From a virus (taxonomy: Duplodnaviria; Caudoviricetes): a stretch of 64,000 bases of DNA. The DNA is taken from positions 32,001 to 96,000 of IMG/VR virus record IMGVR_UViG_3300014203_000012. One strand, 5' to 3'. This document shows positions 2,286 through 61,601 of this stretch, piece by piece. The translations under genes and the position numbers were made by a program. Within the stretch, counting starts at the first letter, position 1, and each line of letters opens with the position of its first letter. The notes under the pieces are model-generated. The model did no database searches. It had not been told where the DNA came from and saw only the letters and a program-made list of their open reading frames with translations.

Positions 2286-4133
2286 TCACGATGATTTCAG
2301 AGCAGAAATCTTGAAGATTTCAGTCTGAACGAAGTCTTTAAATGTTACTTTGATAACAGCATAGAAGATTTTGTTAGCTTCATATGCCTTATCTCTTGTA
2401 TACACAAGTTCAATTGAATTGAACTTAGTTGTATATTTATCAATGATGGCTTGAACGTCATCCTTATATTTCGTTAAATCGTCACCAGTGATGAAGTTAT
2501 AACGAATTTTAGGACATCTAACACGGATTTCTTTGATAAGTTCTTGAGTCATTAATACATTATGCAACCAAGATAACTGAGTCAGTTTTTCTTGAGAAGT
2601 ATATTCAGATTCAAGAGTGAGTAAATCGCTGTAATACGTAGCATAGTTAATGCGACTATCATCGAAATACTGTTTCTGATCAACCTTGGGAGTATTTTTA
2701 GGAACGAAGTTTACAGTCCCTTTGATTACATCAGGGAATGTAACTTCATACAATTGACCGCAGAATGGACGAGATCTACCATTTAGGAAATGTTTAACGA
2801 AATTTGTACACAGCGTATACATAATCGTTACAGTGATTTGCTTCCTGGTATAAGGATCTTTAACATCCCAGCTGTTATGGTATGATGCACAGAAGCGTGA
2901 TTTGTAACTAGCTACATTAGCCAATGTAATTTCTGCAATTGACTGAAGTGCTAGACCCATATCACGGAAATAGAACATATCTTCACGGAAAACTGTAAGA
3001 TTTTCAATTGCCCGTTTTACGATGGCTGGATAGTCAGCATCAAAAACAACGTCTATTCTGCTATTATCCAAATCATAAATATCATCGCTTGCGGTGCCAT
3101 TGAACACTTTTACAAGTTCAGTTGGATATGTAGCTGCAGTAATAGGACGATCGCCAAATAATCCATTAGTACCACCCATAAGACTAATACCGGTCAAAGA
3201 ATCTAGTTGTACTGTCGCGTCTACAATAATTTGATCGTATGCCGCCCCAAATAGATTGCAACCAAACAATGCATCTGAATATTCAAATTCAGCTATATCA
3301 ATACCAGAAATATATGCAACATTTTCCATGAATGCGGTAATTTCATCTTCAAAAATTCTGCAGCGAACTTGATTGGATTCGGTAGCAATAACATTTTGAA
3401 GAGAAATATTAGAGTCGTTTTCAACAATATCTGGATTCAAGCAGAATGTCATTGATTCGAGATCATTACCATTTTCCATAACTTTTAAAATATATTTTAC
3501 ATAATCAACAGGCCTGCTTGCAGATGTATCTGCATAAAGACGGAATTTCTTATTTGAAACTCCTCGCCCATTATCAGCTATCATGAATAATGGATAATGC
3601 CCATCTTCGCCAACAACATTTGAATGGATATTATCTGCTAAGAATGCAGATGCCATTGAAGGTAAACTATTACCAGCAATACTAACAGTTTTTAATTCAT
3701 ATGAAATTTTACATTTCTGAATCATAACTGGAAGCGTACCAATGGCATTTGTACTTTCAGTAACCCCATCAGTATAAATAGGATTACCATTCTCATCAGT
3801 TTTTTGAATAGTTTCCTTAGAGACTACAGCAACAACCCCTATATTAGCAAGAGTTGCATCTTCAGCTACAATACGTTTGCAGAAAAGTCGACCGCCAGCA
3901 TTAATTACTTTAGCAGCCTGAATTAGAGTCTGCCCATGTTTGTAGAATGATGGAGTTGTTCCATACAATTTAAAGAATTTATCTCCCATAAGTTGTTGAA
4001 ATTCCTCAGGACCTTTATCTGAAGAGAATCCTGTCATAAAGACTGGGCGGTCTAACGTGTCTACTGTCGGAGAAGTTATAGAATCAATATTACTCTGGTC
4101 ATCCCAGATAAACTTCGATTGAGCATAAGACAT
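2286..4133 (-). CDS. Contractile tail sheath protein
   Basis: 615 aa. N-terminal SDKGPE...YG...HGQ...RIVAEDA, middle LMGGTNG and VFDADYP, and a sheath-type C-terminus. GGAGG RBS. Confidence 0.85.
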   Translation of the reverse strand: MSYAQSKFIWDDQSNIDSITSPTVDTLDRPVFMTGFSSDKGPEEFQQLMGDKFFKLYGTTPSFYKHGQTLIQAAKVINAGGRLFCKRIVAEDATLANIGVVAVVSKETIQKTDENGNPIYTDGVTESTNAIGTLPVMIQKCKISYELKTVSIAGNSLPSMASAFLADNIHSNVVGEDGHYPLFMIADNGRGVSNKKFRLYADTSASRPVDYVKYILKVMENGNDLESMTFCLNPDIVENDSNISLQNVIATESNQVRCRIFEDEITAFMENVAYISGIDIAEFEYSDALFGCNLFGAAYDQIIVDATVQLDSLTGISLMGGTNGLFGDRPITAATYPTELVKVFNGTASDDIYDLDNSRIDVVFDADYPAIVKRAIENLTVFREDMFYFRDMGLALQSIAEITLANVASYKSRFCASYHNSWDVKDPYTRKQITVTIMYTLCTNFVKHFLNGRSRPFCGQLYEVTFPDVIKGTVNFVPKNTPKVDQKQYFDDSRINYATYYSDLLTLESEYTSQEKLTQLSWLHNVLMTQELIKEIRVRCPKIRYNFITGDDLTKYKDDVQAIIDKYTTKFNSIELVYTRDKAYEANKIFYAVIKVTFKDFVQTEIFKISALKSS

Positions 4134-6660: not shown

Positions 6661-7920
6661 TTATAGATTAACTGTTCCAATATTACTTGAAACTCCATTG
6701 ACTGATTCGTCTGTTACTATAAGACCATCCAATGGATCTGGCGATACCATATCAGGGCCAGATGTAGATTGAGTAACTGGATCACTAAATACATTTACAG
6801 GAATAGTGCCATATATGAGGGTACCATATTCTGTTTTACCGCCAACTGTAGTGTTACCAGTGCCAGTACCACCATAAATAATAGCTCCGACAATACTATT
6901 ACCAACAGTATATCCCCCTACAACTGTACCACCAGAGATAATTCCACCTGATGTTACACCACCAGTAGTCTTTCCTTCCAGTATAGTATAAGTTTTATCA
7001 TTAATATTACCAATAGCAGTGCCACCTTGGATGACACCACCGGTTGTGGTTCCACCTAATGCGATATCTCCGGTAACGACAGCGCCAACTGTTACCATAT
7101 CAACTCCAGTAAGAACTCCGTCGCTTACAGTGGAGTTGTATAAGATCGGCTCGATAACAGCACCACCAGTTGTGGTTCCACCTTCTATAGTACTATTCAA
7201 TGATATAACATGTGATACTTCTGTTGCAACAACAGTTGCCCCAACTGTTATATTTCCAGTTTTAACTCCACCTTCAACATTGCCTAAAACCATAATACCA
7301 CTAACAAAAGTTCCAACTGTGATTATACCACCAGCAGTGGAGCCCCCAGATGTAACTATAGTATTACCGTTAGGATTAGCACCAGTAGAAATTCCACCTT
7401 CAGTACTACCAGTTACGTCTCCACCAGTATTTGTACCACCACCAGGAGTTACTGTACCGCCAGTAATATTACCATTATCATCTATCGTAGCATTGGTAAG
7501 TGTAACATTCTTTACTGTACCTACTGTAGTTCCATTGGTATGCTTGCTATTAGAGATGGTAGTATCTTCATCTGCGTATTTAATGAAGACTTTAACCTCT
7601 CTTATCTGACTAGTCTTAATAGTCTTTACATTAGTGCTACAAGCAGCAGACGCATCTATTTTTATAAGATACTCAATTGCTGGCTGTGGAAAAGATTTAT
7701 CTCTCACGTCTGAGATTCTAGCAAGTCCAATTATCCTACCAACAACTTTATTTAAATTGGTAGATTCTAAATATGTAATATCATAAGTCGTTCCAACTTC
7801 TAATCTGATAGTGTAATCATTTTTAGGATCGGAATACCTTAGAGTTACATCTAAACGTAAATCTTGTTCAGTCTCTACATCTAGTAGTGTGATTATATTA
7901 TTTGTTAATAAACTGCTCAT
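6661..7920 (-). CDS. Gly/Thr-rich repeat protein, putative beta-solenoid virion protein
   Basis: About 250 aa of G-G-x-x-x type repeats. AACA-N6-TA promoter at 7953-7964. Flanked by hairpins. Confidence 0.5.
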   Translation of the reverse strand: MSSLLTNNIITLLDVETEQDLRLDVTLRYSDPKNDYTIRLEVGTTYDITYLESTNLNKVVGRIIGLARISDVRDKSFPQPAIEYLIKIDASAACSTNVKTIKTSQIREVKVFIKYADEDTTISNSKHTNGTTVGTVKNVTLTNATIDDNGNITGGTVTPGGGTNTGGDVTGSTEGGISTGANPNGNTIVTSGGSTAGGIITVGTFVSGIMVLGNVEGGVKTGNITVGATVVATEVSHVISLNSTIEGGTTTGGAVIEPILYNSTVSDGVLTGVDMVTVGAVVTGDIALGGTTTGGVIQGGTAIGNINDKTYTILEGKTTGGVTSGGIISGGTVVGGYTVGNSIVGAIIYGGTGTGNTTVGGKTEYGTLIYGTIPVNVFSDPVTQSTSGPDMVSPDPLDGLIVTDESVNGVSSNIGTVNL

Positions 7921-7997
7921 TTATACAAAACCCTCCTCTATTATAAGTAATTTAATAAAATGTTAAGGCTACAGATTGCTCTGTAGCCTTCTATGAT

Positions 7998-9188
7998 TTA
8001 TACACTAAAAAGTTCAGTATGTCTTTTTTCAAGAACTGCAAAGAGAAGTTTAAGATGTTCAATGCATTGAGTAGAGAAATCGGTTTTTGTTGTCCCTGTT
8101 CTTGCAAGTGATACGATATTTCGCATAGAACTATACATGAACCAAATACCAGGTTTATCGTCTGGCTTGATATTCTTAGACACTTCTGCCAGCATAACAA
8201 TAAATGCTTTACATTGGTCTTGGCTTAATTGTAAAATGTGCGGCATGTCAATAAGAGCAACGTTTTTGAGTGCAGTTGTTTTTAAAATACTTTTACTCAT
8301 AACGAAGTCGAAAGAATCACAAGCACGCTCAAATCTTTTTACTTTCTTAGCTAGACCGCGAATGAACGCATCATCTTCAAGAAGTTTTAATTGACGTTTA
8401 AACGTATAAGCATCAGTGTATGCTTTAGACGTCGCAATTATAATAGCTTTTGTAACTTCATCTTCTGTCGCAGCTGCTTGTTCCAACAATTGAACTTCCA
8501 TAAGTTCACGAGTATGTTCAGCATACATATCAACAATTTCAGGGAATGCCATAGCTTTAGACAATTCATCTTGGAATGCTTTACACTCTTTATCTAAAGA
8601 CATTTCTTGAACAAGTTCAGTTACAACCATACGAGCGTATCGATTTATAACTGAATTTTGTCTAATATTTAAAGCTTTGCAGTTTTCTCGGATAACCTCG
8701 TATATTGCTGGTGGTAGTGCCGCAGCTACATTCATATTGGGATCTGCTTTTGCTTTCACCGCAACATTATAAAGTGTGATAAGATCTTTTTCATCTAATG
8801 AATCAATCATAAGGCTATTAATATTTTTAGATTCTGGCTTCTGATCGTAGATTGTGGAAGCAGATCCATCGCCAGCTTTAATATCGGTTGTTTCTTCAGC
8901 AACAGCTGCCTTAAGTTCCTCGTCGCTCATAGTAGCAATTCCAGTATAGAGTTTGTCTTCTTCTGCAGTATATTCTTTCTGGCTGTTAAGAAGAGCTTCC
9001 CTTGCAAATATATTCATAGGTTTCTCTTCTTCTTTAGGTGGAACTTCAGTTCCATCATCATCCATATCTTCCACAGTTTCTTCTAATACTGGAGTTTCCA
9101 CGTTCATTTTTACGTTTTCGTATACTGGAAATGAAGCATCTCCGTCAATTACTATTTCTGCACCTTTTAATTCATTCTCGATTGTCAT
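7998..9188 (-). CDS. Hypothetical protein (acidic N-terminus, helical)
   Basis: 396-aa ORF with a GGGGA RBS. Confidence 0.7.
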   Translation of the reverse strand: MTIENELKGAEIVIDGDASFPVYENVKMNVETPVLEETVEDMDDDGTEVPPKEEEKPMNIFAREALLNSQKEYTAEEDKLYTGIATMSDEELKAAVAEETTDIKAGDGSASTIYDQKPESKNINSLMIDSLDEKDLITLYNVAVKAKADPNMNVAAALPPAIYEVIRENCKALNIRQNSVINRYARMVVTELVQEMSLDKECKAFQDELSKAMAFPEIVDMYAEHTRELMEVQLLEQAAATEDEVTKAIIIATSKAYTDAYTFKRQLKLLEDDAFIRGLAKKVKRFERACDSFDFVMSKSILKTTALKNVALIDMPHILQLSQDQCKAFIVMLAEVSKNIKPDDKPGIWFMYSSMRNIVSLARTGTTKTDFSTQCIEHLKLLFAVLEKRHTELFSV

Positions 9189-15277: not shown

Positions 15278-15658
15278 CTAGTAATGTTTTTTACTATAAT
15301 CTAAATTGGTTAGTATTCGTGGGGTATATGTATAGTTTCTTTGAACGATAGTATCGATTTCACCGCGAATCTTATCAATTGCAACTATAGTATTGCTGTT
15401 ACGACATATACAATTAAATATACTATTATGTATTTTTATTTTTCTACGTCTAAGCAATACATCTTGAAGCATCGAATACGCTTTCCATCCATCATATGCA
15501 TTTAATTTAGAAAATTCTATATAATGTTCTATATCTGTTTTTTCTAAATCTATTTTAGAGAGTGCATCGTTATGCTGTTTTAGAAATTTATCAATTTCAC
15601 CCTTATTCTTTCCGGTCAATAATAATAAAGTATCAATAATATTTATTATTTCATCCAT
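15278..15658 (-). CDS. Hypothetical protein
   Basis: 126-aa ORF overlapping the helicase stop. Confidence 0.6.
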   Translation of the reverse strand: MDEIINIIDTLLLLTGKNKGEIDKFLKQHNDALSKIDLEKTDIEHYIEFSKLNAYDGWKAYSMLQDVLLRRRKIKIHNSIFNCICRNSNTIVAIDKIRGEIDTIVQRNYTYTPRILTNLDYSKKHY

Positions 15659-17234
15659 CTATTATCACCCTTTCTACAATGGTGCGCTCTACTATGTTTC
15701 TCTGTGCCATATTCATTTGATAGTTGTATATCTGTTGAATATAAGCAATTTGTCTAGCGGCAACAATTTGATTATATTTCACATCAAGCTCTTTATCACT
15801 AATGAATATATCGGTAGACTCTGTAGCATACTTATCGAATATCTGTTGTTTCTGCTTATAATATTTCTTGATAGATAAGAACCCTCTATCTACTGCTTCT
15901 ATATAAACAGTATCTCTGGCTCTTGTTCTCCCCAATGTTTGTCTAGCCAACACTTCAGACTTAAAAGGTTCAGCTAATACAATAGTTAATACAAGCCCAG
16001 GAATATCTATTGCTGCACCGCAGGACTTAGTAGTTGAAAGTATAACCCTCTTATTCAACTGCTCAGCCTTTATATTCTTAGGAACTAGAGAATTATATAT
16101 TCCTATCTGACCAAGATACTCTGGGAAATAATAACTCATCCAATTAAATACTATTTGTATCGCACTATTAGTGCCTATATATATTAAAGTTTTACCATTC
16201 TTTTTCCTACTAATTTCCATGAGAATATAGATTAACTTATAGAACTCTGGTCTTGTTACTGCATAATTTGTATAATTGTTTCTATCAAACCCATAAGCAT
16301 TCTTACAATCATTTATTTGAAATGCAGTAGGATGAGAGTTATAACTGATCCCTATATATTTTGTTCTAGGATCTTCCTCCTCATTAAATAGATCAATAGC
16401 AGGAACGTTCTTAAAGCACATTTGGTAGATTATATTTTCTTCTTCATCACTTCTAGCGGGAGTTGCAGTAAGATATATAGTCTTCATTGTATTAGTGAAG
16501 AAATCTATCTTACAAATATTATCGAAATTAAGATGAGCTTCATCGTATATCTTAATCCCAACCCCAAGTAGTTTAAATAACCCTCCAACTTTATCCCAAC
16601 CGTGTTTATCTCCATAACTCTTTATAGTATCATGGGAAGCTAGAATAAACTTATACTTTGTAAAATCATTCATTCCATTTAATAGTCTAGCGATAGATCC
16701 ACTGCCAGCAATAATATAAACTTCTTCTTTCTTTATATCTGTATACTCTACAATATTATTTTTCCATTGATCTATCCATCCTAAAGATGAAGTAATCATC
16801 ATTGTCATTATAGACGTGTATGATGCCATAGCTATACTTACATACGTCTTACCAACTCCAGGATTTAGATTTACTGATAGTTGAGACTTTGCTTTAGTAT
16901 AGCTATACTCATCCTTACCAAGAACAAATCTAATAGCTTCTTTTTGAACGTCATCTCTTGGTAAATATTTAATCCTAATTGGTTCTACTTTTCTACATGG
17001 ATCGCATTTACTATCTAAATATGCCTTGCAACCAAATACACCTTCTATAAAGTATATATCTGCTCCTCTTGGAAGATACAATTTTTTATTCTCTTCATCA
17101 TAATAAATTGCTTTAGGAAAACTTATATGTCTTATTTTATCATACGTACTAAAAAACTTTTCTAATCTAGGAGCATTTCCAAGCTCATAGTTATTAATAA
17201 CTATGCTTGAATGTCTCACTTCTATTTTATTCAT
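15651..17234 (-). CDS. Superfamily 2 DNA helicase (UvsW-like)
   Basis: PGVGKT, IYDEAH, LTATPARSD, GAAIDIP, QTLGRTR. ATG at 17234 after GGGGTG. Confidence 0.88.
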   Translation of the reverse strand: MNKIEVRHSSIVINNYELGNAPRLEKFFSTYDKIRHISFPKAIYYDEENKKLYLPRGADIYFIEGVFGCKAYLDSKCDPCRKVEPIRIKYLPRDDVQKEAIRFVLGKDEYSYTKAKSQLSVNLNPGVGKTYVSIAMASYTSIMTMMITSSLGWIDQWKNNIVEYTDIKKEEVYIIAGSGSIARLLNGMNDFTKYKFILASHDTIKSYGDKHGWDKVGGLFKLLGVGIKIYDEAHLNFDNICKIDFFTNTMKTIYLTATPARSDEEENIIYQMCFKNVPAIDLFNEEEDPRTKYIGISYNSHPTAFQINDCKNAYGFDRNNYTNYAVTRPEFYKLIYILMEISRKKNGKTLIYIGTNSAIQIVFNWMSYYFPEYLGQIGIYNSLVPKNIKAEQLNKRVILSTTKSCGAAIDIPGLVLTIVLAEPFKSEVLARQTLGRTRARDTVYIEAVDRGFLSIKKYYKQKQQIFDKYATESTDIFISDKELDVKYNQIVAARQIAYIQQIYNYQMNMAQRNIVERTIVERVIIDG

Positions 17235-17332
17235 TCTAATCACCCCATTATAAAGCTGTTGGATAGCAAATTAAAATAAAATTATAAAAAAGAAAAGAGA
17301 GTGATATTTCTAGCACTCTCATATTACACACT

Positions 17333-18187
17333 TTATTCTTTGATTGGATAAACATTTTGCTCGTGTATGAACGATTTATATTTTATATCTTTTGTGGCAG
17401 CATGATAAACAAATCTAAGTATATTACCATCAAAGAGCAATTTAGGAACTACCATTGTGATGATTCCATTAGTCATACTAGCTTTATAAGATACAATATC
17501 TTCCTTTATAGCTTTAGGCAAGCTATCACCTTCATTGTCAATAAAATAAGATGATATATCATAAATTTTATTGAATACGTGAGGCGGAACTATACTACCA
17601 ATTATCTCCGATATTAATGGATTATTTCTTTCTGGTTTGTGTATAAATATGAAATGTGAGATTAATGGTATTACAAATTTGACAAATAGACTAGTTTCCA
17701 TAAGAGAAATAGTTTCCTCGTCGGTATAGTCCAATACCTTATATTTAGATTTTTTATAATGCATTTCTGAATTATAATTATCTAAATTCATTTTCTTAAT
17801 CTTTTCAGATATAACTCCACTTAGTATATAATTTTGAATATCTGAAATAAACAATTCTTTAGTATACTCTTCTGTTTTGAAATTCATTAAAAGGCTCATG
17901 CGTTCATATGCTGAGAGTAAATTCTTCTCAGGATCATAGAACTTTTCGAAGTAATTAAGATAATGAGTTAAATGCTCGCGCATATACTCACTATTATATG
18001 CACGTTTAGATGTCATTACAAAATGATTTACGATACTATCTTGAGGTTTTACCGCAATAGATATAGTACCCTGTGAATGTTTAAATATTTGATCCTCTTC
18101 TGGAATGTTGTGAATATACACATTGGAGTTAGGACGTACCAAACACCATTTGTCCGCTGGAATAAAATTAGACTGTTCTGCTTTCAT
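17333..18187 (-). CDS. Truncated paralog of the sigma-like RNAP promoter-specificity subunit (N-terminal domain only)
   Basis: Collinear with the first ~300 aa of 37544..39121 (SKRxYNS, YLNYFEKFYD, MNxDNYN, LxYTD, IPLxSH, PK...NI, DIKYK). Has its own early promoter at 18236-18248. Confidence 0.7.
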   Translation of the reverse strand: MKAEQSNFIPADKWCLVRPNSNVYIHNIPEEDQIFKHSQGTISIAVKPQDSIVNHFVMTSKRAYNSEYMREHLTHYLNYFEKFYDPEKNLLSAYERMSLLMNFKTEEYTKELFISDIQNYILSGVISEKIKKMNLDNYNSEMHYKKSKYKVLDYTDEETISLMETSLFVKFVIPLISHFIFIHKPERNNPLISEIIGSIVPPHVFNKIYDISSYFIDNEGDSLPKAIKEDIVSYKASMTNGIITMVVPKLLFDGNILRFVYHAATKDIKYKSFIHEQNVYPIKE

Positions 18188-18235
18188 TGTTATCAATCTC
18201 CTTCAAGATATAATGCAATTGTCTTATTGCTCACT

Positions 18236-18248
18236 TATATAATATATA
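18236..18248 (-). promoter_or_regulatory. Early-type promoter
   Basis: TTATATATTATATAAGTGAGCAAT. Confidence 0.65.
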
Positions 18249-18288
18249 ATCAAAAAATAAAAGGCTACCTATATAGGTAGCCTTTATA

Positions 18289-18660
18289 TTAGATATCAAA
18301 ATACGGATTAAATAGTCTTAGCATTGCTTGTATGGATGCATTCTTGGCTGATAGTAAGAGGGTTATACCATTTCTGAAATCCTCCTCGGTCATTCTTTCA
18401 TCATAACTATAAAAGACAACACGATCACAATCAAAGCTACAATCTTGCATAAACTCAAATCTTGGACCGTTGTATATTTTTTCAATTCGTTCAGTAAACA
18501 TAGCAAGAGGTCTATCCCATACTTGGAATTCTCCATCTTTAATATACATTGCTTTATAAATAACTCTTTCTTCTAGAGTTTCTGTGTCTTTAGCAATGTT
18601 CAATATAACGTAATAGTTACCCTTAAAATGTCTGTAAATCTGCCCTACTTTAACTTCCAT
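18289..18660 (-). CDS. DUF1653-family protein
   Basis: GQIYRHFKGNYY...AKDTETLEERVIYKA...WDRPLAMF. ATG at 18660 after GAGGAG. Confidence 0.8.
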   Translation of the reverse strand: MEVKVGQIYRHFKGNYYVILNIAKDTETLEERVIYKAMYIKDGEFQVWDRPLAMFTERIEKIYNGPRFEFMQDCSFDCDRVVFYSYDERMTEEDFRNGITLLLSAKNASIQAMLRLFNPYFDI

Positions 18661-18661
18661 A

Positions 18662-19108
18662 TTAAATATTCTCCTCTTGTATAAACTCATTAGCTTGCTT
18701 TATGAAATTAGCGTATAACATATTCGATAATAATTCTATTCTTTGTTGGTTGGCTTTAATAGCAAACGCTGCTTCTTTATCGATTGGTAACACTAATACC
18801 ATCTCGACACCTTCAGTGTTTAATAATTTATCTATAAAATCTTTATCCTCATCATCAAGTGGAGATTCTGGAGTTTTATAAGTAGACGGGTCTATAAATA
18901 CATATATAAATTTATACCTTTCTTCTTTAATTATAGAGAAGTTTGGATATAAATTTGCAATATCATATTTACCAGAACCTACTCTTTTAAGCAACTCTAT
19001 CAGCTCAGTATTCTTTTTATATAATACTCTAGCCGTGCGAATATCTCCTTTATTTTTATACCAAATTACCAGAGATCCAGCTTTATTGTAATCAAACATA
19101 TTAATCAT
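18662..19108 (-). CDS. Hypothetical protein, tandem paralog of 19105..19551
   Basis: Shared SLxIWY...KKN..L..LL.R...PN.S.IK...SP.D...EMV. Confidence 0.65.
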   Translation of the reverse strand: MINMFDYNKAGSLVIWYKNKGDIRTARVLYKKNTELIELLKRVGSGKYDIANLYPNFSIIKEERYKFIYVFIDPSTYKTPESPLDDEDKDFIDKLLNTEGVEMVLVLPIDKEAAFAIKANQQRIELLSNMLYANFIKQANEFIQEENI

Positions 19109-19551
19109 TCCTCTCTTTTTATAATACCTCTAACTCGCATTTCAAAACTTGTAAGTATTGAAGAGGAAAACGATTCCGCGTTTAATGGTATCGTTTTCAT
19201 ATGATCTATTAAATTTTTATTAATATCGATAGATACTACCATTTCAAAACCACCCATTTCTATTAGTTTAGGTATAAGAATATCAGTACTACCATCAAAT
19301 GGCGATTTTAGTTTCATCTCACAGTAGTACTTACTATCTGCAAATATATACATAAAATTATATTTATCTTTAATCAAAGAACAGTTAGGGATTAGTTTAC
19401 AAATGACAATTTCGTTTCCGTGTGAATATAATCTTTGCAATAATTTCACAAGAGCATCGTTCTTTTTATTTAGCGATGTGTCGCAACGCGTATCCCCATT
19501 AACAATATACCAAATATTTAGCGAGTCTGGTGTGTTAAAAAGGTCAAACAT
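19105..19551 (-). CDS. Hypothetical protein, tandem paralog of 18662..19108
   Basis: 148 aa, AGGAG RBS. Confidence 0.65.
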   Translation of the reverse strand: MFDLFNTPDSLNIWYIVNGDTRCDTSLNKKNDALVKLLQRLYSHGNEIVICKLIPNCSLIKDKYNFMYIFADSKYYCEMKLKSPFDGSTDILIPKLIEMGGFEMVVSIDINKNLIDHMKTIPLNAESFSSSILTSFEMRVRGIIKREE

Positions 19552-19969
19552 TGGCTATCTCCTTTCTCACACTTTCTATATACTTTTCATATAAAACTCT
19601 ATATTGATTATCTTCAGAATCGCATATTAGATTTCCTACACATATTTTAGCCAATATACCAACAGCCATTCCAATTTCTTTATATATTTTAATAACTTCA
19701 TTAGTATTAAAATATTTATCTTCTATAAAGATGCTAATCTTTTCAACCATATTATCAGTGGCGTGTTTAAATATTATATTAAATAATTCGTCTGATACTT
19801 TAGTTAATCTTCTCTGCAATAATTGATTTTCAGAGAAGCGTAAATCTTTTATTTTAATATTAAATAAATCAATTGAGTTATTACATATAATATCAATAGG
19901 ATAATTATCGATAATTTTTATATCTTTATTTAATTGAACATCGTCTATTTCTATATTTGAAAATATCAT
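19544..19969 (-). CDS. Hypothetical protein
   Basis: 141 aa, AGGAG RBS. Confidence 0.6.
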   Translation of the reverse strand: MIFSNIEIDDVQLNKDIKIIDNYPIDIICNNSIDLFNIKIKDLRFSENQLLQRRLTKVSDELFNIIFKHATDNMVEKISIFIEDKYFNTNEVIKIYKEIGMAVGILAKICVGNLICDSEDNQYRVLYEKYIESVRKEIANV

Positions 19970-20024: not shown

Positions 20025-22187
20025 TTAATTTGTATCTTTGACTCTATGCCGTATAGCTGGACAGAAGTTTTCTTGCTTAGGATTGTCGTCTATGATATTA
20101 GACGTATCACTAAGAAAGTTCTGTGGCTGTTTCATGAAGAATAGATCCATATATGATGGAGAATCCTTCTTGAAGGATAGTGGATAATACAATGCTTTGC
20201 TTAAGTTTTGATAGAGCATAGATATTGTAATACTAGGATTATCAGTAAGCGCCTGATTCAAAGTTATAACCTGATATGGCTCATCTGGGCAATCCCAATC
20301 TGGATTGTCTAGAATACTACCTGCACTTCTTATTTGATTCATAAGAAGTATTTCTAAATGGACAGCCATAATATGTAGATTACCTTCTAATATAAGTTCC
20401 ATCAAAGCCTGCAGTATAGCATCTTTAGTATAACTCTCTGGGCTTTCTTTCCTTTTCTTAGGATCTATTTTCTTATTTAGTGTGCTTTGAATATCATCAA
20501 GTGTCTTGCTTAATTCATTATTGTGAAGTTTAATAAAGAATAAAGCCAGGTCTTGTTTATTCAGTTCAAATAGATCTAGCTGCAACATATCATCTTCAGT
20601 TGTAATCGCATGTTTCTTTAAATATGTATTAAACTCTGACGATAAATACATTGGGTTATCATCTTCTGTTTTTATAATTGTACGTTCTCCCTCTTTATCC
20701 TCCATATAGAATTCTGTGGTGAACGTATTATAATCTCCATCTACAACGTCTTCTTCGTCGTCATCATCCAAATAGTCTGTTTTCTTATAATCATCTTCAT
20801 TCTCTTGAATAAGTTTAAGAGGATCAAAAACCATATAAGTTCCTTTTGGAAAGTTAAAATCTGTTGATAACTGAAGGATATTAATATTAATCGCAAAATA
20901 ATTAGTGAATTCTGGAACCCATGACATTTTCCGAATAATAGTTTCGAGTAAATGCTTAGCCGATAGTTGCCGCTGAGTAAGTTCGGATGAAAGGTTTTCA
21001 GCAGCGAACTTACCAATCTTGATATTATTATTGGTATACGCCAAGTCTCCGTAACATTTATAACATACACCATTACCTCTAGCGGCAGATGCACATGTCA
21101 TTGGACTACGAAGATAAATTGTTTTACCTATTAGAGATGTATCTTTTGAGTGTATGGAATATTCTATTCCATTTGGATTGAACCGATAATATCTATCGGT
21201 TAGAAGATCAAGTATCTTTTTATTTTTAATATTTACTATTTGGAAATTACTAGTATGACAATCATAAGTAGAATCGTCATGTATCGTCGTATCTATATTA
21301 TTCAAACCTAAGATACGAGCAAAGTTACCACTATACCCTACATTGTTCTTCATCTGAATTTGTGCAACCCGAGAAGAACTAGAGTCTATAAATTGGTTAA
21401 GAATACTATTCAGTGAACCACTAAGATAACTACCATCAATGATAGCAGGATGAACCCCGCCTTGACCATTGGGTTTGGACCCGATGTGGATTGCAAATTC
21501 TTTATATTGTCTTTCATTAATCCCTTCTCTAGATAAGAACGGATCTCTGAGACAATGATGGTACCCTATTAAATTTTTAGAATCGTTAATGATAATAGCT
21601 TTAGCTCTTCTAGCTTTTATCATACCGAAATCCTTAACATCTTCGATAGGAGTATTAGGGAATGTAGTATGCATGATAGCATCAAACTCTGGGCTAGCAT
21701 TCATTAATGCAATATCATCTTCCAAATTAATTGTGTTTGCAATAAACATAGAGAACCTGTCGACATCAACAAAGTTATGTAAAGTATCATCGATAATGTT
21801 ATTCATACGCACACTATCCATTTCCTTTCTAACCTCATCAACAAAATGATCGTCAATAAATCCTTTAATATTATCCTGAGTAATTGCAGTATGAAAATAC
21901 AAATGTTTACCTGTGATCTGTTTCGCCGAACGTACAATCAGATACCAGTGAATTATATTAAAATAGAGATCCATTATAGACATATCGACGATGTCACCAT
22001 CACCAAAGTCTACCGTGATAAAAGTTTTTTGTAGAAATTCGGTTTCGATACCGTCTCGCATTAGGTTTAGAACACCATCATAGTGCTCGTGCCAATTATT
22101 CATGGTTATATCACTTGTGTGCAAAACCATCTTTCCTGTCTTTACAAGCTCTTGGTAAATATGATAATTATTAAAATTAGTTAGCAT
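20025..22187 (-). CDS. rpoC: RNA polymerase beta' C-terminal subunit (split; probably non-virion RNAP)
   Basis: Bridge-helix-like VGYSGNFARIL, Zn site LRSPMTC...GVCYKCYG, trigger-loop IGKFAAENLSSELTQRQLSAKH, VHLEILL. Early promoter at 22251-22263. Confidence 0.88.
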   Translation of the reverse strand: MLTNFNNYHIYQELVKTGKMVLHTSDITMNNWHEHYDGVLNLMRDGIETEFLQKTFITVDFGDGDIVDMSIMDLYFNIIHWYLIVRSAKQITGKHLYFHTAITQDNIKGFIDDHFVDEVRKEMDSVRMNNIIDDTLHNFVDVDRFSMFIANTINLEDDIALMNASPEFDAIMHTTFPNTPIEDVKDFGMIKARRAKAIIINDSKNLIGYHHCLRDPFLSREGINERQYKEFAIHIGSKPNGQGGVHPAIIDGSYLSGSLNSILNQFIDSSSSRVAQIQMKNNVGYSGNFARILGLNNIDTTIHDDSTYDCHTSNFQIVNIKNKKILDLLTDRYYRFNPNGIEYSIHSKDTSLIGKTIYLRSPMTCASAARGNGVCYKCYGDLAYTNNNIKIGKFAAENLSSELTQRQLSAKHLLETIIRKMSWVPEFTNYFAININILQLSTDFNFPKGTYMVFDPLKLIQENEDDYKKTDYLDDDDEEDVVDGDYNTFTTEFYMEDKEGERTIIKTEDDNPMYLSSEFNTYLKKHAITTEDDMLQLDLFELNKQDLALFFIKLHNNELSKTLDDIQSTLNKKIDPKKRKESPESYTKDAILQALMELILEGNLHIMAVHLEILLMNQIRSAGSILDNPDWDCPDEPYQVITLNQALTDNPSITISMLYQNLSKALYYPLSFKKDSPSYMDLFFMKQPQNFLSDTSNIIDDNPKQENFCPAIRHRVKDTN

Positions 22188-37543: not shown

Positions 37544-39121
37544 TTAAATTAGTAACGTAAGTACTAGCATTTCTTCACATATTATTTCTGGCGTATGTGA
37601 ATAATCGACAGTAATGCCATTTAGATCTTCGTTGTAATAATCGATATTCTTAAACTCAGATGCTAAAATCTGAGCGATGTTTTTGAGTAGAATCTGGTCT
37701 TGAATCTTTTCGTTACGATACTTATCAACAACTTTAGGGAAATTATCAGAGATCATCATTCGCTGTAAGATTTTCTTATTTACCGTCTTCCTTGTAACAA
37801 AACGACTAATTCTGCCACCAAGAATAAATGGAAGCATAGTTTGTCCTTCACGTATTAGTTTCCGTTTAGCTGCTATCATAAGCACTAGATAGTCTCTATT
37901 GTTTATGAGTTTTACAGCTTGAGTATCACAGAAATTTCTTAAGAATAAATATGATATAAGATTGCACTGGAATTCATTCTTTAGTGGTTTCCCATCAATG
38001 GTAAGTTCTTTCCTATAGAACTCAATCTCATCTTCTGAAAACGGACCAAACTCTTGAATGATATTCCGCATTGTGGTTTCACAGTTTACATTAGTCTGAA
38101 TAAGCATAGCCTCATCTTGTTTAGCCATATGCGCTTCAAACTTATCGCTTTCACTATTGTTATCATCATCCCTGCTAGATGATGATACAGTTATCAATGC
38201 AAATTCATATGGAATATCAGTAATTTTATACTTAATATCTCGCATGATTGCATCATAATTAAAATGAATAATATTCTTGGAATATGTATATTTTGGAATT
38301 ATCTGCATGATAAGATCTTCTAAGGTATACATAGAATGTACGGTCGCGTTTCTTCCCCGTATATCTTGCATATCAAAAAGTATCATATTGTTATTGCGGC
38401 TTTTGTTTACATTTGTTGTTGTTGTTTCAAAGAGTTTAGATATCATATCTATACCATGTTTGTGTACAATCATAACAAAGATACGATCAAATGCCCTAAG
38501 TAGGATTCTTTTGATTTCAGGGGCGGGTACTTTTCTAGTATAAATATAATGTGATACCAAAGGTATAATTATATTTTGTAGCATTGATATTTCCATCAGT
38601 ATAGTTGCATGGAAATCTGTATACTCTAAACATGGATTTTTGTTATTTCGATAGGTTAAATGAATATTGTAGTTGTCCCTATTCATGCATCCTATTTTAT
38701 AATGCAATTCTGGAGACATTGTATTATCAATGATACATCTAACAATATCATTAATAAAATGATCTTCGGTATAGTTTTCTTGATAATCGATAAGATACTT
38801 TAGTTTAGCATATATAAAGAATAATATATGCTCTCTATCATAGAATTTTTCAAAGTAATTTAGATAGGTAGTATTGTGTTCTCTGAAACCAATTACTAGC
38901 TTCTCTTCCTTCATTTTAGTATCACTGTTGTAACACCGTTTAGATGACATCATAAAATAATTGATATCACTATTTTCTGGCATTCCATAGATTGGCGCTA
39001 TGTTTGCAATGATAGCTCCACGCGCATGAGCGAATATGCAATCTTCTGGTTGCATAACCCATTCATCAACTGGTACGAATTTAGGTATGATACTTCTTTC
39101 TACTATAGTTTTCAAGTACAT
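37544..39121 (-). CDS. Sigma-like promoter-specificity subunit of non-virion RNAP (phiKZ gp68 / AR9 gp226-like)
   Basis: 525 aa. LEYTDFHATILMEISMLQNIIIPLVSHY resembles the gp68-family pattern from memory. Acidic SSRDDDNNSESDKFE finger-like linker. Early promoter at 39172-39184. Lies near the chaperonin, as in AR9. Confidence 0.65.
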   Translation of the reverse strand: MYLKTIVERSIIPKFVPVDEWVMQPEDCIFAHARGAIIANIAPIYGMPENSDINYFMMSSKRCYNSDTKMKEEKLVIGFREHNTTYLNYFEKFYDREHILFFIYAKLKYLIDYQENYTEDHFINDIVRCIIDNTMSPELHYKIGCMNRDNYNIHLTYRNNKNPCLEYTDFHATILMEISMLQNIIIPLVSHYIYTRKVPAPEIKRILLRAFDRIFVMIVHKHGIDMISKLFETTTTNVNKSRNNNMILFDMQDIRGRNATVHSMYTLEDLIMQIIPKYTYSKNIIHFNYDAIMRDIKYKITDIPYEFALITVSSSSRDDDNNSESDKFEAHMAKQDEAMLIQTNVNCETTMRNIIQEFGPFSEDEIEFYRKELTIDGKPLKNEFQCNLISYLFLRNFCDTQAVKLINNRDYLVLMIAAKRKLIREGQTMLPFILGGRISRFVTRKTVNKKILQRMMISDNFPKVVDKYRNEKIQDQILLKNIAQILASEFKNIDYYNEDLNGITVDYSHTPEIICEEMLVLTLLI

Positions 39122-39186
39122 TTCCCCCTAATCTCCATCAAAAATTATTATATTATATATTTCACCTCATAGATATAATATATAAT

Positions 39187-39975
39187 CTACTTTCTTTTTG
39201 TCGTTTTAGTATGAGCAACAGTTTTATTAGTAGTTGTTTTCTTTACCATACTATGTGTGTTGACAACAGTAGTTTTTGATATGCCCTTAGTACTCCGGTT
39301 CCCACCAATTGATGGAATATTAGGTTTATAACCAGTAGGATTTTTTTTCTTCTTTTCTTCTTTAGCTTTCTGTTCTCCCTGTAATTGTCGAGCTTCTACC
39401 TTTTTATCTGCATCTTCAACGAAAGCCAATAGGTCTTTCTTTACATATGGGACACTTTCTGCTAACCATACAACCTTTTTGTCTAAACCTTTTAGTTGTA
39501 TAAATATGTATGCGAAATAGATCGTTTTTACATAACCTATAACGTTTTTAGGATTTCTAATATCCGCCTTTTCAGTTAATGCCCTTTTACTCATCTTAGG
39601 CATTAAGTCTTCTATAAATAATTTATTCTTGGCAAATGAATATGCATGGGTAAATACGAAAGCTGGATCGTTAGAGAAGAATTTAACTTCGTAGTTTTTT
39701 AAAGTATTCTCAGCTTCAATCGCTATATTGCTTGCTGTGAATTCAATAACGACGTCATAGTAAAATTTGGCAATTATTTCCGAAGGAATTTTAAAGTGCA
39801 TGATATATCTTCTGTCGGTATCTTTATATAATCGATAGTTGATCTTACCTGCATCTCTCACTATCAGAGCATCAAACTTCTTTGTATAAACTTCTTTAAA
39901 TATACTTCTTTGGCTAAACACCGCATTGTTTTTACCCATAGGGTTTTTGATATATTCATCTAAAGTCATTACCAT
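39187..39975 (-). CDS. Conserved-type jumbo phage protein with a basic tail
   Basis: IPSE...YDVVIEF...FSNDPAFVFTHAY...RNP (degenerate SWIM-like layout); Lys/Thr-rich C-terminus. Confidence 0.55.
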   Translation of the reverse strand: MVMTLDEYIKNPMGKNNAVFSQRSIFKEVYTKKFDALIVRDAGKINYRLYKDTDRRYIMHFKIPSEIIAKFYYDVVIEFTASNIAIEAENTLKNYEVKFFSNDPAFVFTHAYSFAKNKLFIEDLMPKMSKRALTEKADIRNPKNVIGYVKTIYFAYIFIQLKGLDKKVVWLAESVPYVKKDLLAFVEDADKKVEARQLQGEQKAKEEKKKKNPTGYKPNIPSIGGNRSTKGISKTTVVNTHSMVKKTTTNKTVAHTKTTKRK

Positions 39976-44797: not shown

Positions 44798-46606
44798 TTA
44801 TACGTGTGGATAAGTTACACCGTTTGCAGTGTAATCATTTGCAGCATTAACACCAATTGGATCTGGGTTAGTGATATCTTCCCGAAGACCAGTTGGGTTC
44901 ATGATTTGGATACGCCCTTGTACAGCTTGATACTGTAAGAACATCCAGCGTTCGAAGCAAGTAATACCAGGAAGCTGGTAATTAACTGTGTCACGAATTT
45001 CATTGGAAATATACATTTGATAATCAATGATTTTGTACATAATCCTTTGAGTATTACGTGGGCAGAGAATTACAATCAGATTGTTATTATCGCGCATCTT
45101 CTGACTGGAGATGAATTGATAGATACGTTTCTCGCCAGTAACAATGGTCTTTTTGTAGTCAAGCTCAATAGGACCAATGCTTGATGGAGTAGAATAAGTA
45201 TATTCGCGAGGAGTGATTTTCTTAATCAATTCAGGACGACCGAATACTGTAATTGACATGTTCTCATCATTCAAGACTTGTAGCATGTACGTTACTTGAG
45301 TATCAAGATAATCCATGAAAGTTTCTTGTCTCCATGATACATGGGAAGCCATGTAAGAACCTTGAGGAGGCACGAAGTCAAATGCTCCAGCAACCTTTTG
45401 ATTTGAAGGTAAGCCCAAGAATGATTTGTCCAATTCATCATGAATTGTATCATCTTTGTAATGCATTAATGCCAAACGCATCTGGCTCATAATTTTTGTG
45501 ATTTGATTTACATTATAAAGTGCAGTAACATCTTTTACTTCTTCAGGGGACACAGTCGTAGTGATATGTGGAGCCTCTGGAATTTCAAACATGTCTGTAC
45601 GTGCACTCCATTTAGTACGGCAAGTCTTGAATGCAGCAGATGATACATCAACTACAGCATGAAGTCTTACAGCCTTTACGTCAGCTGCATTCATACAAGT
45701 AATCATGAATTTATTTTTCTTCATGTAACCGCTGATGATACCCTTAACTGTTTTGTTGGTGGTAGCGTCAGTTTTTGCAATAACTGTAAATGAAGCCATG
45801 ATAGAACGATCAAATTCGCCATAAGATGGAACGAATTTCATTTCGCCTACATTGAATAATACTGGTTTAACACCGGCTGTTTCAGCAGGAATTATTGCTT
45901 TAGTGGTTGTATCATAATAGCTTGCGCCGATAGCAACATAACTATCAACAAGAATTCCAGTAATACAAGTCTTAATACTTAACGCAGCATCAACAGAATT
46001 GACTCCGAATTCAGTGCTAAGAATATCAAGAGTTTCGTTTTCTGGAAGAGTAATAATAAGATCTTTTGAAGGTACGCTATTTTTGATAGCATCCTTAATC
46101 TTATATTGCTCCAAATACATATCGATCTCTTCGCCGTCTGGAGTGACAAGTGTACGAGTTTCCATAGTCAAAGTGAACTTAGGAGAACGGGCAACGTCCT
46201 TAGGCATTGATTGATCGAACACCGCATTCATCAATAAATTTTTATGCATTGGAAAAGTGATACCAATCATTGGATTGAACGCTCCAAGTGAAGCGGACTC
46301 CATTACACCTTTACGGTCATTGGTATATAATTCAGACATATCTTCTTCGAGTTGTGCAACGTCTTCGATGTCTTGATACCGAGGATCGGCAGGATCATAG
46401 GATTCCTTAAGGAAAAGTTTTCTCATTTCATCATTTGTGGAATTCTTTTGGAAAAACTGGGATGGAGCATCATATACACTAATCCCCGATTCCGTAACAC
46501 AACTTTTTGCAAGATCAAGGAACTGTTCTGCTAATTTATGCATTGGGTCTTTTCTATAACCTCTGGATGTAGCCAAAGGATTTTCGCGCGTACCTACAGC
46601 TGGCAT
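44798..46606 (-). CDS. Major capsid protein precursor
   Basis: 602 aa. Propeptide ending VMES; AGGAGG RBS; late promoter at 46676-46687; strong terminator at ~44754-44790. HK97/T4-gp23-like C-terminal pattern. Confidence 0.8.
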   Translation of the reverse strand: MPAVGTRENPLATSRGYRKDPMHKLAEQFLDLAKSCVTESGISVYDAPSQFFQKNSTNDEMRKLFLKESYDPADPRYQDIEDVAQLEEDMSELYTNDRKGVMESASLGAFNPMIGITFPMHKNLLMNAVFDQSMPKDVARSPKFTLTMETRTLVTPDGEEIDMYLEQYKIKDAIKNSVPSKDLIITLPENETLDILSTEFGVNSVDAALSIKTCITGILVDSYVAIGASYYDTTTKAIIPAETAGVKPVLFNVGEMKFVPSYGEFDRSIMASFTVIAKTDATTNKTVKGIISGYMKKNKFMITCMNAADVKAVRLHAVVDVSSAAFKTCRTKWSARTDMFEIPEAPHITTTVSPEEVKDVTALYNVNQITKIMSQMRLALMHYKDDTIHDELDKSFLGLPSNQKVAGAFDFVPPQGSYMASHVSWRQETFMDYLDTQVTYMLQVLNDENMSITVFGRPELIKKITPREYTYSTPSSIGPIELDYKKTIVTGEKRIYQFISSQKMRDNNNLIVILCPRNTQRIMYKIIDYQMYISNEIRDTVNYQLPGITCFERWMFLQYQAVQGRIQIMNPTGLREDITNPDPIGVNAANDYTANGVTYPHV

Positions 46607-52009: not shown

Positions 52010-53149
52010 TTATTTACAAGCATAAGTAGATTTAGTATCAGCCAAATACATTATAAATCTTTTTCTTAGAATAATATTATCCCATAATAAAGATATATTA
52101 CTTAAACTAGATATTAAAGTAAGAGTAGTATATGGCGCAGATGATGTAAATCCTAATTGACCATTATAATTATTACCAAATGACTTTACGGTACTATCAT
52201 TTAATAATACTAAAGAATGCCCCATACCACATGATATTTGTTTTATATTAGTTAAACTAGAGATTAGTATAGGAGTAGATTGCGGAGTAACTTTATTACC
52301 TAATCCTAATTCACCGTATTGATTATCACCAAATCCCATTAATGTACTATCATTTAGTAATACTAAACAATGAGATTGACCACATGCTATTTGGTTTACG
52401 TTAGTCAAACTAGGTATTAACGTAGGAGCGAGATATGTCGTAGTATTTCCTAAACCTAATTGGCCATAACCATTCTGCCCACATGATTTTACAGTACCAT
52501 CGTTTAGTAATACTAAAGAATGATTACCACCACATGCTATTTGTTTTACGTTACTTAGACTAGATATTAAAGTAGGAGTAGTATATGGAGTAGTGATGTT
52601 ACCTAAGCCTAATTGCCCATTAGTATTCATACCAAATGATTTTACTGTACCATCATTTAGTAATGCTAAAGAATGACTACCACCACATGATATTTGTTTT
52701 ACGTTAGATAGACTAGGTATTAATGTAGGAGTAGTATATCCTACATTAGTATTGCCCAATCCCAATTGACCATATGTATTCTGCCCACATGCTTTTACTG
52801 TACCATCATTTAATAAAACTAAAGAATGATAACCGCCGCATGCTATTTGTTTTATGCTACTCAGCCCAGATATTAACGTAGGAGTATTATATGGTGATGT
52901 AGTATTACCTAAACCTAATTGACCATTATAATTATTACCAAATGACTTTACGGTACTATCATTTAATAATACTAAAGAATGTTGGGCTCCACATGATATT
53001 TGTTTTACGTTAGATAAATTAGGTATTAATGTAGGAGTACTAATTGGGTTGACTACATTACCTAAACCTAATTGTCCTTGATCGTTACTACCAAATGCTT
53101 TTATTGTTCCATCATTTAATAAAACTAAAGACTGAGTATTATTTGACAT
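52010..53149 (-). CDS. RCC1/BLIP-II repeat beta-propeller protein, copy 3 (7 repeats)
   Basis: Seven repeats. AACATCTAAGTA promoter at 53182-53193. GAGGTG RBS. Confidence 0.9.
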   Translation of the reverse strand: MSNNTQSLVLLNDGTIKAFGSNDQGQLGLGNVVNPISTPTLIPNLSNVKQISCGAQHSLVLLNDSTVKSFGNNYNGQLGLGNTTSPYNTPTLISGLSSIKQIACGGYHSLVLLNDGTVKACGQNTYGQLGLGNTNVGYTTPTLIPSLSNVKQISCGGSHSLALLNDGTVKSFGMNTNGQLGLGNITTPYTTPTLISSLSNVKQIACGGNHSLVLLNDGTVKSCGQNGYGQLGLGNTTTYLAPTLIPSLTNVNQIACGQSHCLVLLNDSTLMGFGDNQYGELGLGNKVTPQSTPILISSLTNIKQISCGMGHSLVLLNDSTVKSFGNNYNGQLGFTSSAPYTTLTLISSLSNISLLWDNIILRKRFIMYLADTKSTYACK

Positions 53150-53253
53150 TGCAATCACCTCTTATTTGTTTCTTTTATACTTACTTAGATGTTGGGGTAT
53201 ATTGATATTACAATAAAAAATAAGGCACTTTATACAAGTGCCTTATATATTAA

Positions 53254-59960: not shown

Positions 59961-61601
59961 TTAAAATACTGGGTTGGTGATACGTTTTTCATCATCAGGA
60001 AGGATTAATGTAAGGTTATATAATGCCATCATTCCTTCATTTGTAGTCTGCATGATATTTTCTCCACCCAAAGAAATATAATGTGCTTTTGAGTTTAGTT
60101 GATTTCTAAGTTCCTCATTCGCTTCCACACTATAAACCGATTTGCATGAAATCTGGTCGCCATCATAATCACCACCTATACTCCCGAGATATGCGTTGCA
60201 TATCTGAGCTGTATCTATGAAAGTATTAGATGTATTCTTACCAATATCCTCTTGTCTAATCTTAGGATAGTGTGGATAAAATGTATTGTTTATAACCATA
60301 GGCTCTATTGACTTTGATGAACTTACTCTTATCTTTGTAGGGAATTGATTGTAATAACTATCAATAGGATATCTTGTAATAAGAACCATCTTATCTTTCG
60401 TCACTTCTACCGCTGCCATATAGATAAGATCGCACCAAGTGAAATCTCTATCCATGATTGGAAATTTAAGAATATCGTCTCCGTCTTTATATTGCTTTTC
60501 TGTTATACCTTTGCCCTTAAATCGAAGAGTTATATCTTTCTTCTCATCTTCTAATGGAAGTACAATTGGACGGAATCTATTTGAATATCCATGCATGAAT
60601 CTATCAAGTTCTTCTTTTAATATTGTATCAGAAAAAGAGATTTGATAGTCCTTCATTTTATATTGCTTAGTAGATCCATCTTTCATAATTACTTTTCTTA
60701 ATGGATCATTGGCAAATTCATTTTCAAAGAATCTGCGCATGTAAAAGATAATATAAGGAAAAAAGTTAGATACGACAGATGCTAATGGTACTGCCGTGTG
60801 GTCTAGATCGGTAATCATATCTTCCATACGCTCAACTTTAAGGTTAGGAGCTGACAGTACCAAGCGAGACGAGTAATCTGTTGTTTTGCTAAGATTGGCT
60901 CGTCTAAGTGTACCTCTCTTGCCTGGTATATTAGGTTCTGATGTGAGCCAATCATATATACTAACTAAGATCTCTTGTATTCTTCCTCTAACAGAATCTG
61001 CAAGAGTTAATCCATATTCAGCAGATTCTTTTAAAGAGTTAGTTGCTATGATTAGTGCGTTGTATAACTTATTTACATCTCCGACACCCACATATCCACC
61101 ATCACTATTTACATCGCGATAGTATGCTGGAATAACTATCATATCTTCGATAAACATTAAGTCTTTATATTTCTTCAAAAACTTAATATTGTTTTCTCGC
61201 TTAGAAGATTCAGTAGACTTGATTTTAATCTTATCAATATTCTTCTTTAAGAAGATTAATCCATTTTCCCCATCTTCATCTTCTACTAGTTCTCCAGCTG
61301 AGTTAATTTTAAAGCTACTTGTTCCGTGGACACATGCTCGAAAACGACTATCCATTTTACATAGTATTTTATACATCAGTGGATGTATAAAAGGAGTTTT
61401 GCCTAAAGAGATTGTAGCAAAGGTATTAGCCCTCTGTTCTTTTGATATACCAAATATCTCATTAGATAGGAGCCCGTCAGACGTAGGGGCGTTGTTTTTT
61501 GTGAAGAAGACGGCATTCGAAATTGATTGTACCTTATTAACTTTAATAAAATTAGACACGTTGAGTGGTTTTAATGAGAAGTATTTTTGTTCATCCGGCA
61601 T
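59961..61601 (-). CDS. rpoC: RNA polymerase beta' N-terminal/catalytic subunit (split; possibly virion RNAP)
   Basis: DGLLSNEIFG, VIPAYYRD, GKRGTLR...KTTDYSSRLV, TRYP, catalytic GGDYDGD. Confidence 0.9.
   Translation of the reverse strand: MPDEQKYFSLKPLNVSNFIKVNKVQSISNAVFFTKNNAPTSDGLLSNEIFGISKEQRANTFATISLGKTPFIHPLMYKILCKMDSRFRACVHGTSSFKINSAGELVEDEDGENGLIFLKKNIDKIKIKSTESSKRENNIKFLKKYKDLMFIEDMIVIPAYYRDVNSDGGYVGVGDVNKLYNALIIATNSLKESAEYGLTLADSVRGRIQEILVSIYDWLTSEPNIPGKRGTLRRANLSKTTDYSSRLVLSAPNLKVERMEDMITDLDHTAVPLASVVSNFFPYIIFYMRRFFENEFANDPLRKVIMKDGSTKQYKMKDYQISFSDTILKEELDRFMHGYSNRFRPIVLPLEDEKKDITLRFKGKGITEKQYKDGDDILKFPIMDRDFTWCDLIYMAAVEVTKDKMVLITRYPIDSYYNQFPTKIRVSSSKSIEPMVINNTFYPHYPKIRQEDIGKNTSNTFIDTAQICNAYLGSIGGDYDGDQISCKSVYSVEANEELRNQLNSKAHYISLGGENIMQTTNEGMMALYNLTLILPDDEKRITNPVF

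Follow-up and report, generated by a model that had tools for sequence, protein, structure and literature searches.

A free-standing copy of the N-terminal domain of a sigma-like RNA polymerase subunit in an AR9-like jumbo phage

Besides the gene for the normal sigma-like fifth subunit of its non-virion RNA polymerase (nvRNAP), an AR9/PBS1-like jumbo phage carries a second, shorter gene whose product, by its predicted fold, is the N-terminal domain (NTD) of a gp226-type subunit alone. The promoter-reading, cleft-entering and core-holding elements of this short copy are missing or unconstrained, and for its product the role of an accessory modulator is more probable than that of a second sigma factor. 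To our knowledge it is the first paralogue of a gp226/gp68-type subunit, and it is maintained as a separate gene with its own predicted promoter. The window analyzed here is a stretch of 64,000 bases, 32001-96000 of a 183,919-bp IMG/VR virus record with an estimated completeness of 75% (hereafter G000), and coordinates refer to the window unless stated otherwise. The features on which the analysis turns are the following.

15651..17243: helicase gene
17285..17320, minus strand: hairpin and U-run directly after the stop of the short gene (-10.2 kcal/mol, z -2.66)
17333..18187, minus strand: short gene, 284-aa stand-alone NTD copy of the nvRNAP sigma-like subunit (from ORF, BLASTP and fold)
17333-17335, minus strand: stop codon of the short gene
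18198..18204, minus strand: RBS GAAGGAG, 10 nt upstream of the ATG (read from the sequence)
18232..18254, minus strand: AR9-type early (virion-RNAP) promoter TTTGATTATATATTAT-ATAAGT-G, predicted +1 G at 18232
18260..18285, minus strand: terminator-like hairpin and T-run ending the upstream DUF1653 gene and setting the short gene apart from it (11-bp stem, 5 GC pairs)
18289..19969, minus strand: variable accessory island with the DUF1653 gene, two tandem 148-aa paralogues and a 141-aa ORF
18289..18690, minus strand: DUF1653 gene
18662..19108 and 19105..19551, minus strand: the two tandem 148-aa paralogues (35% identity, E 8e-21)
20025..22187: nvRNAP subunit gene, 720 aa, matching 7S00_D
37544..39121, minus strand: long gene, 525-aa sigma-like subunit (gp226/gp68 orthologue) with NTD, acidic finger linker and C-terminal domain (CTD) (from profile and fold)
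39168..39190, minus strand: AR9-type early promoter of the long gene, predicted +1 G at 39168

The phage has its own multisubunit RNA polymerases. It also encodes a tail sheath, a terminase, a major capsid protein and GroEL, a context that fits an AR9-like jumbo phage.

In AR9, gp226 is the promoter-specificity subunit of the nvRNAP (PDB 7S01, 7UM0, 7UM1; PMC9209446). It consists of an NTD (residues 1-264) that includes a sigma2-like module (184-264), a sigma-finger (265-294) and a CTD (295-464), and the pocket for the template-strand -10U is built from its 2.1bis helix (205-214) and the beta-N subunit (PMC9209446). The NTD forms a stable unit that resists proteases; it is the part that first takes hold of the non-template strand and initiates melting (PMC9209446), and the CTD anchors the subunit to the core and touches upstream DNA. 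Since both NTD and finger are disordered in the DNA-free holoenzyme (PMC9209446), the CTD is the stable anchor, in phiKZ as in AR9; chain 7UM1_A contains the CTD only. The corresponding sigma-like nvRNAP subunit of phage phiKZ is gp68 (PDB 7OGP, 8QUE, 9RJS; PMC8287921, PMC12809450), the NTD of which is mobile without DNA (PMC8287921, PMC12809450) and recruits and deforms or bends DNA (PMC12809450). The phiKZ subunit has been described as integral and non-exchangeable, with the consensus read by the beta-like subunit (PMC12809450).

The 525-aa protein is the normal sigma-like fifth subunit of this enzyme. A family profile (A1), built from 22 homologues, matches the gp226 chain (7S01_A/7UM0/7UM1, 464 aa) from residue 10 to 464 (hmmsearch, E 5.6e-16). 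Its AlphaFold model (pLDDT 92.0) finds 7S01_A in Foldseek with an E-value of 2.5e-15 over 515 columns, phiKZ gp68 (8QUE_B) with 8.6e-6, and the CTD-only chain 7UM1_A with a TMt of 0.72, so that by profile and fold the long copy matches gp226 end to end and has the full NTD-finger-CTD architecture. PHROGs places it in phrog_25005, 'RNA polymerase', and tblastn with the long protein locates phiR1-37 g245 and Listeria phage LPJP1, at one place each; no second gp226-like gene was found in these matching cultured relatives. Searches of PDB sequences with phmmer gave no match for either the short or the long protein, gp226 being reached only by the family profile. Neither protein matches a sigma family in Pfam (sigma-70 region 2 or region 4, E <= 1), which is silent for both, and among bacterial sigmas the closest by structure has a Z of 3.0 (6N61_F), within noise.

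The short protein is a paralogue of this subunit. Translation most plausibly begins at the ATG at 18187; the TTG located 9 nt upstream of it lies too close to the RBS. BLASTP aligns residues 8-271 of the short protein with residues 15-299 of the long one (33% identity, 53% positives, E 8e-41), and a six-frame search of the 183.9-kb record with the long protein returns exactly two places, the short and the long genes. An earlier sequence-only reading had matched the 284-aa ORF by eye with the first ~300 residues of the 525-aa protein, proposed that the latter resembles gp226 and gp68, and placed an early promoter before each gene; all of this is borne out, and the motifs that it quoted (YLNYFEKFYD, DNYN, IPL.SH, DIKYK) are present in the alignment. 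The short copy also ends where that reading put its end, before the acidic linker and the CTD: its stop follows 13 residues after the shared KYK of the DIKYK motif, just before the acidic SSSSRDDDNNSESDKFE linker of the long protein, which aligns with the gp226 sigma-finger.

Structure prediction agrees with this paralogy. The AlphaFold model of the short protein (pLDDT 88.9, pTM 0.89) finds gp226 (7S01_A) in Foldseek with probability 1.00 and a TMq of 0.71, and gp68 (8QUE_B) with a TMq of 0.59; no fold besides these two rises above noise. VIA-align superimposes residues 29-280 of the model on residues 2-267 of gp226 (Z 23.1, rmsd 2.8 Å, 242 residues, 19% identity), and the fold of gp226 residues 1-264 is thus present in the predicted structure. 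PHROGs and Pfam contain no match for the short protein, and tblastn against 50,697 phage records returned none. The base composition of the gene is ordinary (GC 0.295 against 0.327 for the genome), with no sign of recent import.

Relative to gp226, and to the long copy of the same phage, the short protein is a separate product that ends at the NTD boundary, without the finger (265-294) and without the CTD (295-464). The acidic segment SSS.RD.D..S..DKFE of the finger is missing, the stop codon is followed by the hairpin and U-run, and no CTD-like ORF lies near the short gene in a record that holds just two gp226-like places. The remaining domain has itself been altered. In the long family the best-conserved sigma2 motif, LWDMQDIRG, aligns in the HMM alignment with the gp226 2.1bis helix 205-214 and forms an 8-residue helix (246-253) in the long model; in the short model only a 5-residue helix (225-229) stands there. 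Throughout the short clade, that is, this copy and two homologues described below, the 2.1bis segment is 6 residues shorter, LWDMQDIRG is gone and both W249 and R255 are replaced, leaving the short protein without the conserved 2.1bis pocket motif.

A residue audit, restricted to alignment columns with a conservation of 80% or more in 42 full-length homologues, separates what was lost from what was kept. The short clade lacks the conserved residues H171, E232, T233, W249, R255 and Y305. It retains nearly all those of the N-lobe (F56, K61, Y64, Y76, N78, Y79, F80, Y84, D85, N137, Y138, Y154, S166, I173, P174, H178 and K207). Members of the short clade are 43-55% identical in the YLNYFEKFYD block as against 18-25% in the sigma2-like part, a drop that does not occur in the long family. 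The conserved part of the short protein is therefore the N-terminal lobe, around the YLNYFEKFYD block, and not the sigma2-like part. At the position equivalent to gp226 Y246, which stacks on the non-template strand, this copy has F and the other two members have I.

Judged by its sequence signals, the short gene is an independent early transcription unit, with a predicted early promoter of its own, an RBS and hairpins on both sides. The promoter belongs to a consensus of ~30 nt, TT[T/G]RRTTATATATTATATAnnTGAGCAATAA, of which the genome contains ~30 sites, each before genes, and which has a G seven bases after TATATATTAT (TATATATTAT-N6-G). It equals the early virion-RNAP consensus of AR9, AAATATATATTAT-N6-G (PMC5312081), and precedes the short gene, the long gene, nvRNAP subunit genes and accessory genes; an early promoter of the TATATATTAT-N6-G type also drives the gp226 gene of AR9. 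Allowing at most one mismatch, the window contains 12 matches where 1.45 are expected (12773, 18248, 22263, 22761, 28202, 31183, 33511, 39184, 51967, 55657, 57953 and 59946). Structural genes are preceded by a different motif, the AR9-type late promoter AACA-N6-TAA (e.g., before 2286..4133, 44798..46606 and 52010..53158), which is equally visible upstream of genes in a relative, G001.

The short architecture is very rare. Among the 144 matches of an exhaustive HMMER search of 1.84 billion representative proteins, only two share it with the present copy, P0148 (341 aa, 41% identity) and P0122 (275 aa, 34% identity). Both have the traits of the short clade, namely an N-terminal Y.NIPE.D insertion, a lost 2.1bis motif and a stop within ~15 residues of the same place; P0122 ends at this very point, and the gene behind it is unrelated. 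The three members are 34-41% identical to each other, and all frames are intact. Each of 45 related IMG/VR records (24 of them at least 90% complete) has a single gp226-like locus, and a second NTD copy was found in 0/45, with the family profile applied to all 45 and the short protein used as query for 32. By the sequence-only reading's own account, absence or decay of the short copy in relatives would speak against its proposal; absence largely holds, but decay does not, as three divergent members keep the truncated architecture. Our search of the literature found no report of a gp226/gp68 paralogue or of a free-standing NTD.

Several candidates for further short copies were rejected. A weak second match in G016 (E 1.6e-4) was not recovered by the profile search. 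P0149 (321 aa, 40% identity) keeps the long-type residues, is more similar to the long copy, and lies behind a gene homologous to the 262-aa gene found in front of the long copy; this is the syntenic position of the long gene, and P0149 is accordingly long-type. Many other 'short' homologues of 275-360 aa proved to be the first exons of intron-interrupted long genes rather than NTD-only paralogues: their C-terminal half lies 0.27-1.35 kb downstream, and the profile matches non-overlapping pieces of one locus.

These interruptions are of some interest in themselves. In relatives the long gene is broken at the NTD/finger boundary (the equivalent of residues 300-332), in some cases into as many as 4-5 pieces; examples are L007, L020, L005, L014, L032, L039 and L047 (~6800-8200 in each locus), as well as G023, G038 and G039. 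The insert at 6807-7097 of L014 is a group I intron (Rfam RF00028, 100.9 bits). Unspliced transcripts of interrupted long genes would give NTD-only proteins. The short paralogue ends approximately in this insertion zone, which suggests that an origin from exon 1 is possible.

P0148, by its position an orthologue of the short gene, lies in a contig (L066, Logan DRR530174) that is syntenic with the window, with the nvRNAP subunit gene, small ORFs, DUF1653, the short gene and the helicase gene in this order. Identity to the window is 76% for the nvRNAP subunit, 79% for the helicase and 41% for the short protein; the orthologue of the long copy from the same sample, in contig L087, is 81% identical, and from the shared sample and the similar identities we infer that the two contigs come from one phage. 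Of the dN/dS check proposed in the sequence-only reading, only relative dN was usable, because pS is ~0.7 (saturated) for all compared genes: at a dN of 0.55, against 0.11 for the long copy, the short copy evolves ~5x faster by this measure. Its pN of 0.39 is below its pS of 0.70, and the dN/dS of 0.27 is, with dS saturated, a rough sign of constraint only. The surroundings are variable as well. The island lies between the nvRNAP subunit gene and the helicase gene, where the relatives G001, G004 and G009 have unrelated ORFs; its neighbouring small genes diverge equally fast (43-46% identity), and its two tandem 148-aa paralogues have no family assignment. In a quick maximum-likelihood tree of NTDs the short clade is monophyletic (SH-aLRT 98) on long branches and groups with P0149 and, branching at its base, with the long clade to which this phage's own long copy belongs (support 88). 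Taken together, tree placement, rates and synteny show that the duplication is old and that the copy, which is evolving fast, has been retained in few lineages.

What the short protein does has to be weighed against this record of loss and retention. Our best guess, which we hold tentatively, is a trans-acting modulator or decoy. The NTD of gp226 captures the non-template strand and starts to melt DNA, that of gp68 recruits and bends DNA, and the short gene would supply early on a free NTD whose N-lobe is conserved while its sigma2-like part has degenerated, which together make a modulator in trans the most plausible role. The conserved N-lobe would bind the same partner as the NTD of the long subunit, be it melted AT-rich promoter DNA or a surface of the polymerase, and the protein would thereby damp or delay initiation by the nvRNAP early in infection. 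Its target would be either the nvRNAP of its own phage, on which it would act as a timer, or that of a co-infecting relative, which it would poison. Several points tell against such a modulator. By analogy with AR9, where the NTD is not stable on the core without DNA, the affinity of an isolated NTD for core may be low; a competitor for the docking site on the clamp would be expected to conserve its sigma2-like part better than the short clade does; and the aromatic residue equivalent to gp226 Y246, being F here and I in the other two members, counts against this reading too. The more specific claim that the protein is a mimic of the DNA-capturing domain, acting in trans to regulate or poison a jumbo-phage polymerase (its own or a competitor's) as an anti-sigma by mimicry, strikes us as unlikely. 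The hypervariable island and the fast evolution would fit a host-directed or anti-defence role equally well, and a role apart from the phage polymerase is nearly as likely as a modulator. Such a neofunctionalised accessory protein, using the N-lobe as a scaffold for binding host RNA polymerase or DNA or for counter-defence, is possible if somewhat doubtful when considered alone. The gene is early, is known from three members in 1.84 billion representatives, sits in a variable island between two conserved genes among small genes that diverge as fast as it does, and has its least conserved region in the polymerase-facing sigma2-like part. Yet the short protein has acquired no new domain or motif and matches no defence or anti-defence family, Pfam and PHROGs being empty, and it has kept the whole NTD fold, with all sigma2-like helices, at high model confidence.

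The sequence-only reading had proposed a cascade in which the phage swaps specificity subunits, the short protein replacing or supplementing the long NTD and redirecting the nvRNAP to a variant class of promoters; its alternative, a dominant-negative role for the short copy, may still apply. A complete NTD fold, which in gp226 carries promoter-reading elements, an early promoter of its own, and the precedent of T4 gp55, a sigma2-only protein that directs transcription, all speak for an exchange of this kind. We nevertheless regard it as very improbable. The short copy has neither CTD anchor nor finger, it has lost the 2.1bis pocket motif, and its sigma2-like part, 18-25% identical within the clade, is the least conserved of all; we infer that it cannot act as a gp226-type promoter-specificity subunit. 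Nor does the short copy account for the promoter variants that it had been invoked to explain, since G001 (99% complete, without the short copy) shows the same AACA-N6-TAA motif with similar enrichment (G001 against G000, AACA 3.1x and 3.0x, TACA 2.2x and 2.5x), although with a 4+2-base motif and small counts this comparison is weak evidence, and the matches to GACA, which differed between the two (8 against 2), are too few to interpret. No second copy occurs in the 45 relatives, AR9, with its one gp226, also has late promoters that depart from the consensus (PMC5312081), and exchange would be at odds with the integral, non-exchangeable subunit described for phiKZ (PMC12809450). A functionless remnant, left by the duplication or captured as the first exon of an intron-split gene and heading for loss, is improbable as well. 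It would explain why the copy is absent from nearly all relatives, why dN is elevated and why the truncation falls in the zone where introns interrupt the long genes of relatives. Three intact and divergent members, expression signals of its own and a confident predicted fold make a relic unlikely, however: the frame is open in three lineages that are 34-41% identical and stop within ~15 residues of a common point, pN remains below pS, a consensus promoter, an RBS and terminators are in place, and the N-lobe motif is strongly conserved.

Small phage proteins that time transcription are familiar from T4, where gp55 is a sigma2-only late sigma that directs transcription and needs a co-factor, and where sigma-directed regulators of the AsiA type are found; gp55 and the AsiA-type regulators act on the host RNA polymerase. 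The short protein resembles these in being small and in its likeness to proteins that consist of a sigma2-like module only or that disturb contacts among sigma, core and promoter. It differs from them in that it stems from the phage's own sigma-like subunit and in that its sigma2-like part is the least constrained; no sequence or fold relation between the short protein and gp55 or AsiA was found. It likewise shares its fold with phiKZ gp68, as does the long copy, but exists as a gene apart from the integral subunit that gp68 is described to be.

Structural studies depict jumbo-phage nvRNAPs as having a single sigma-like subunit, fixed and integral, and no specificity factor that could be exchanged. 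Contact of the short protein with the polymerase or with promoters would show that regulation in trans is possible for these enzymes, and the protein, as an NTD that lacks pocket, finger and anchor, would be a separation-of-function tool provided by nature. Were it to prove a mimic, it would be the first dedicated regulator described for an otherwise 'non-configurable' nvRNAP; were it to act elsewhere, it would exemplify how a domain of a polymerase can be turned into an accessory gene. The short copy occurs in a small lineage only, which limits its general importance.

Other subunits and sites of these polymerases yielded observations of their own. At 38360..38390 in the long gene (residues ~245-255), an Ile is aligned to gp226 V206, which in AR9 excludes thymine at -10; the long-family consensus at this position is V or I followed by L-W. 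Together with the AACA-N6-TAA late promoters, this Ile hints at an AR9-like recognition of the template strand and possibly at deoxyuridine DNA. Beyond the window lie a gene for an 806-aa beta-like protein (G000:12347-14767) and one for the beta'N subunit of the nvRNAP.

G000:C1:174001-175242: nvRNAP beta'N, 413 aa, orthologue of AR9 gp270 and phiKZ gp55, matching AR9 chain 7S00_d (E 1.5e-20) and phiKZ gp55

This gene appears to be split. The 413-aa ORF stops just short of the catalytic segment, and ~375 bp downstream, in another frame, a further stretch (175619-175741) matches PF00623 weakly, both pieces falling outside the window (window coordinates 142001-143741); Rfam contains no intron match at the split. 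Inside the window, a 546-aa beta'N-like protein is encoded on the minus strand at 59961..61601, with DYDGD at 478. It has no match to the AR9 nvRNAP and no early promoter, it is conserved across phiKZ-like phages, and it is probably the beta'N subunit of the virion RNA polymerase.
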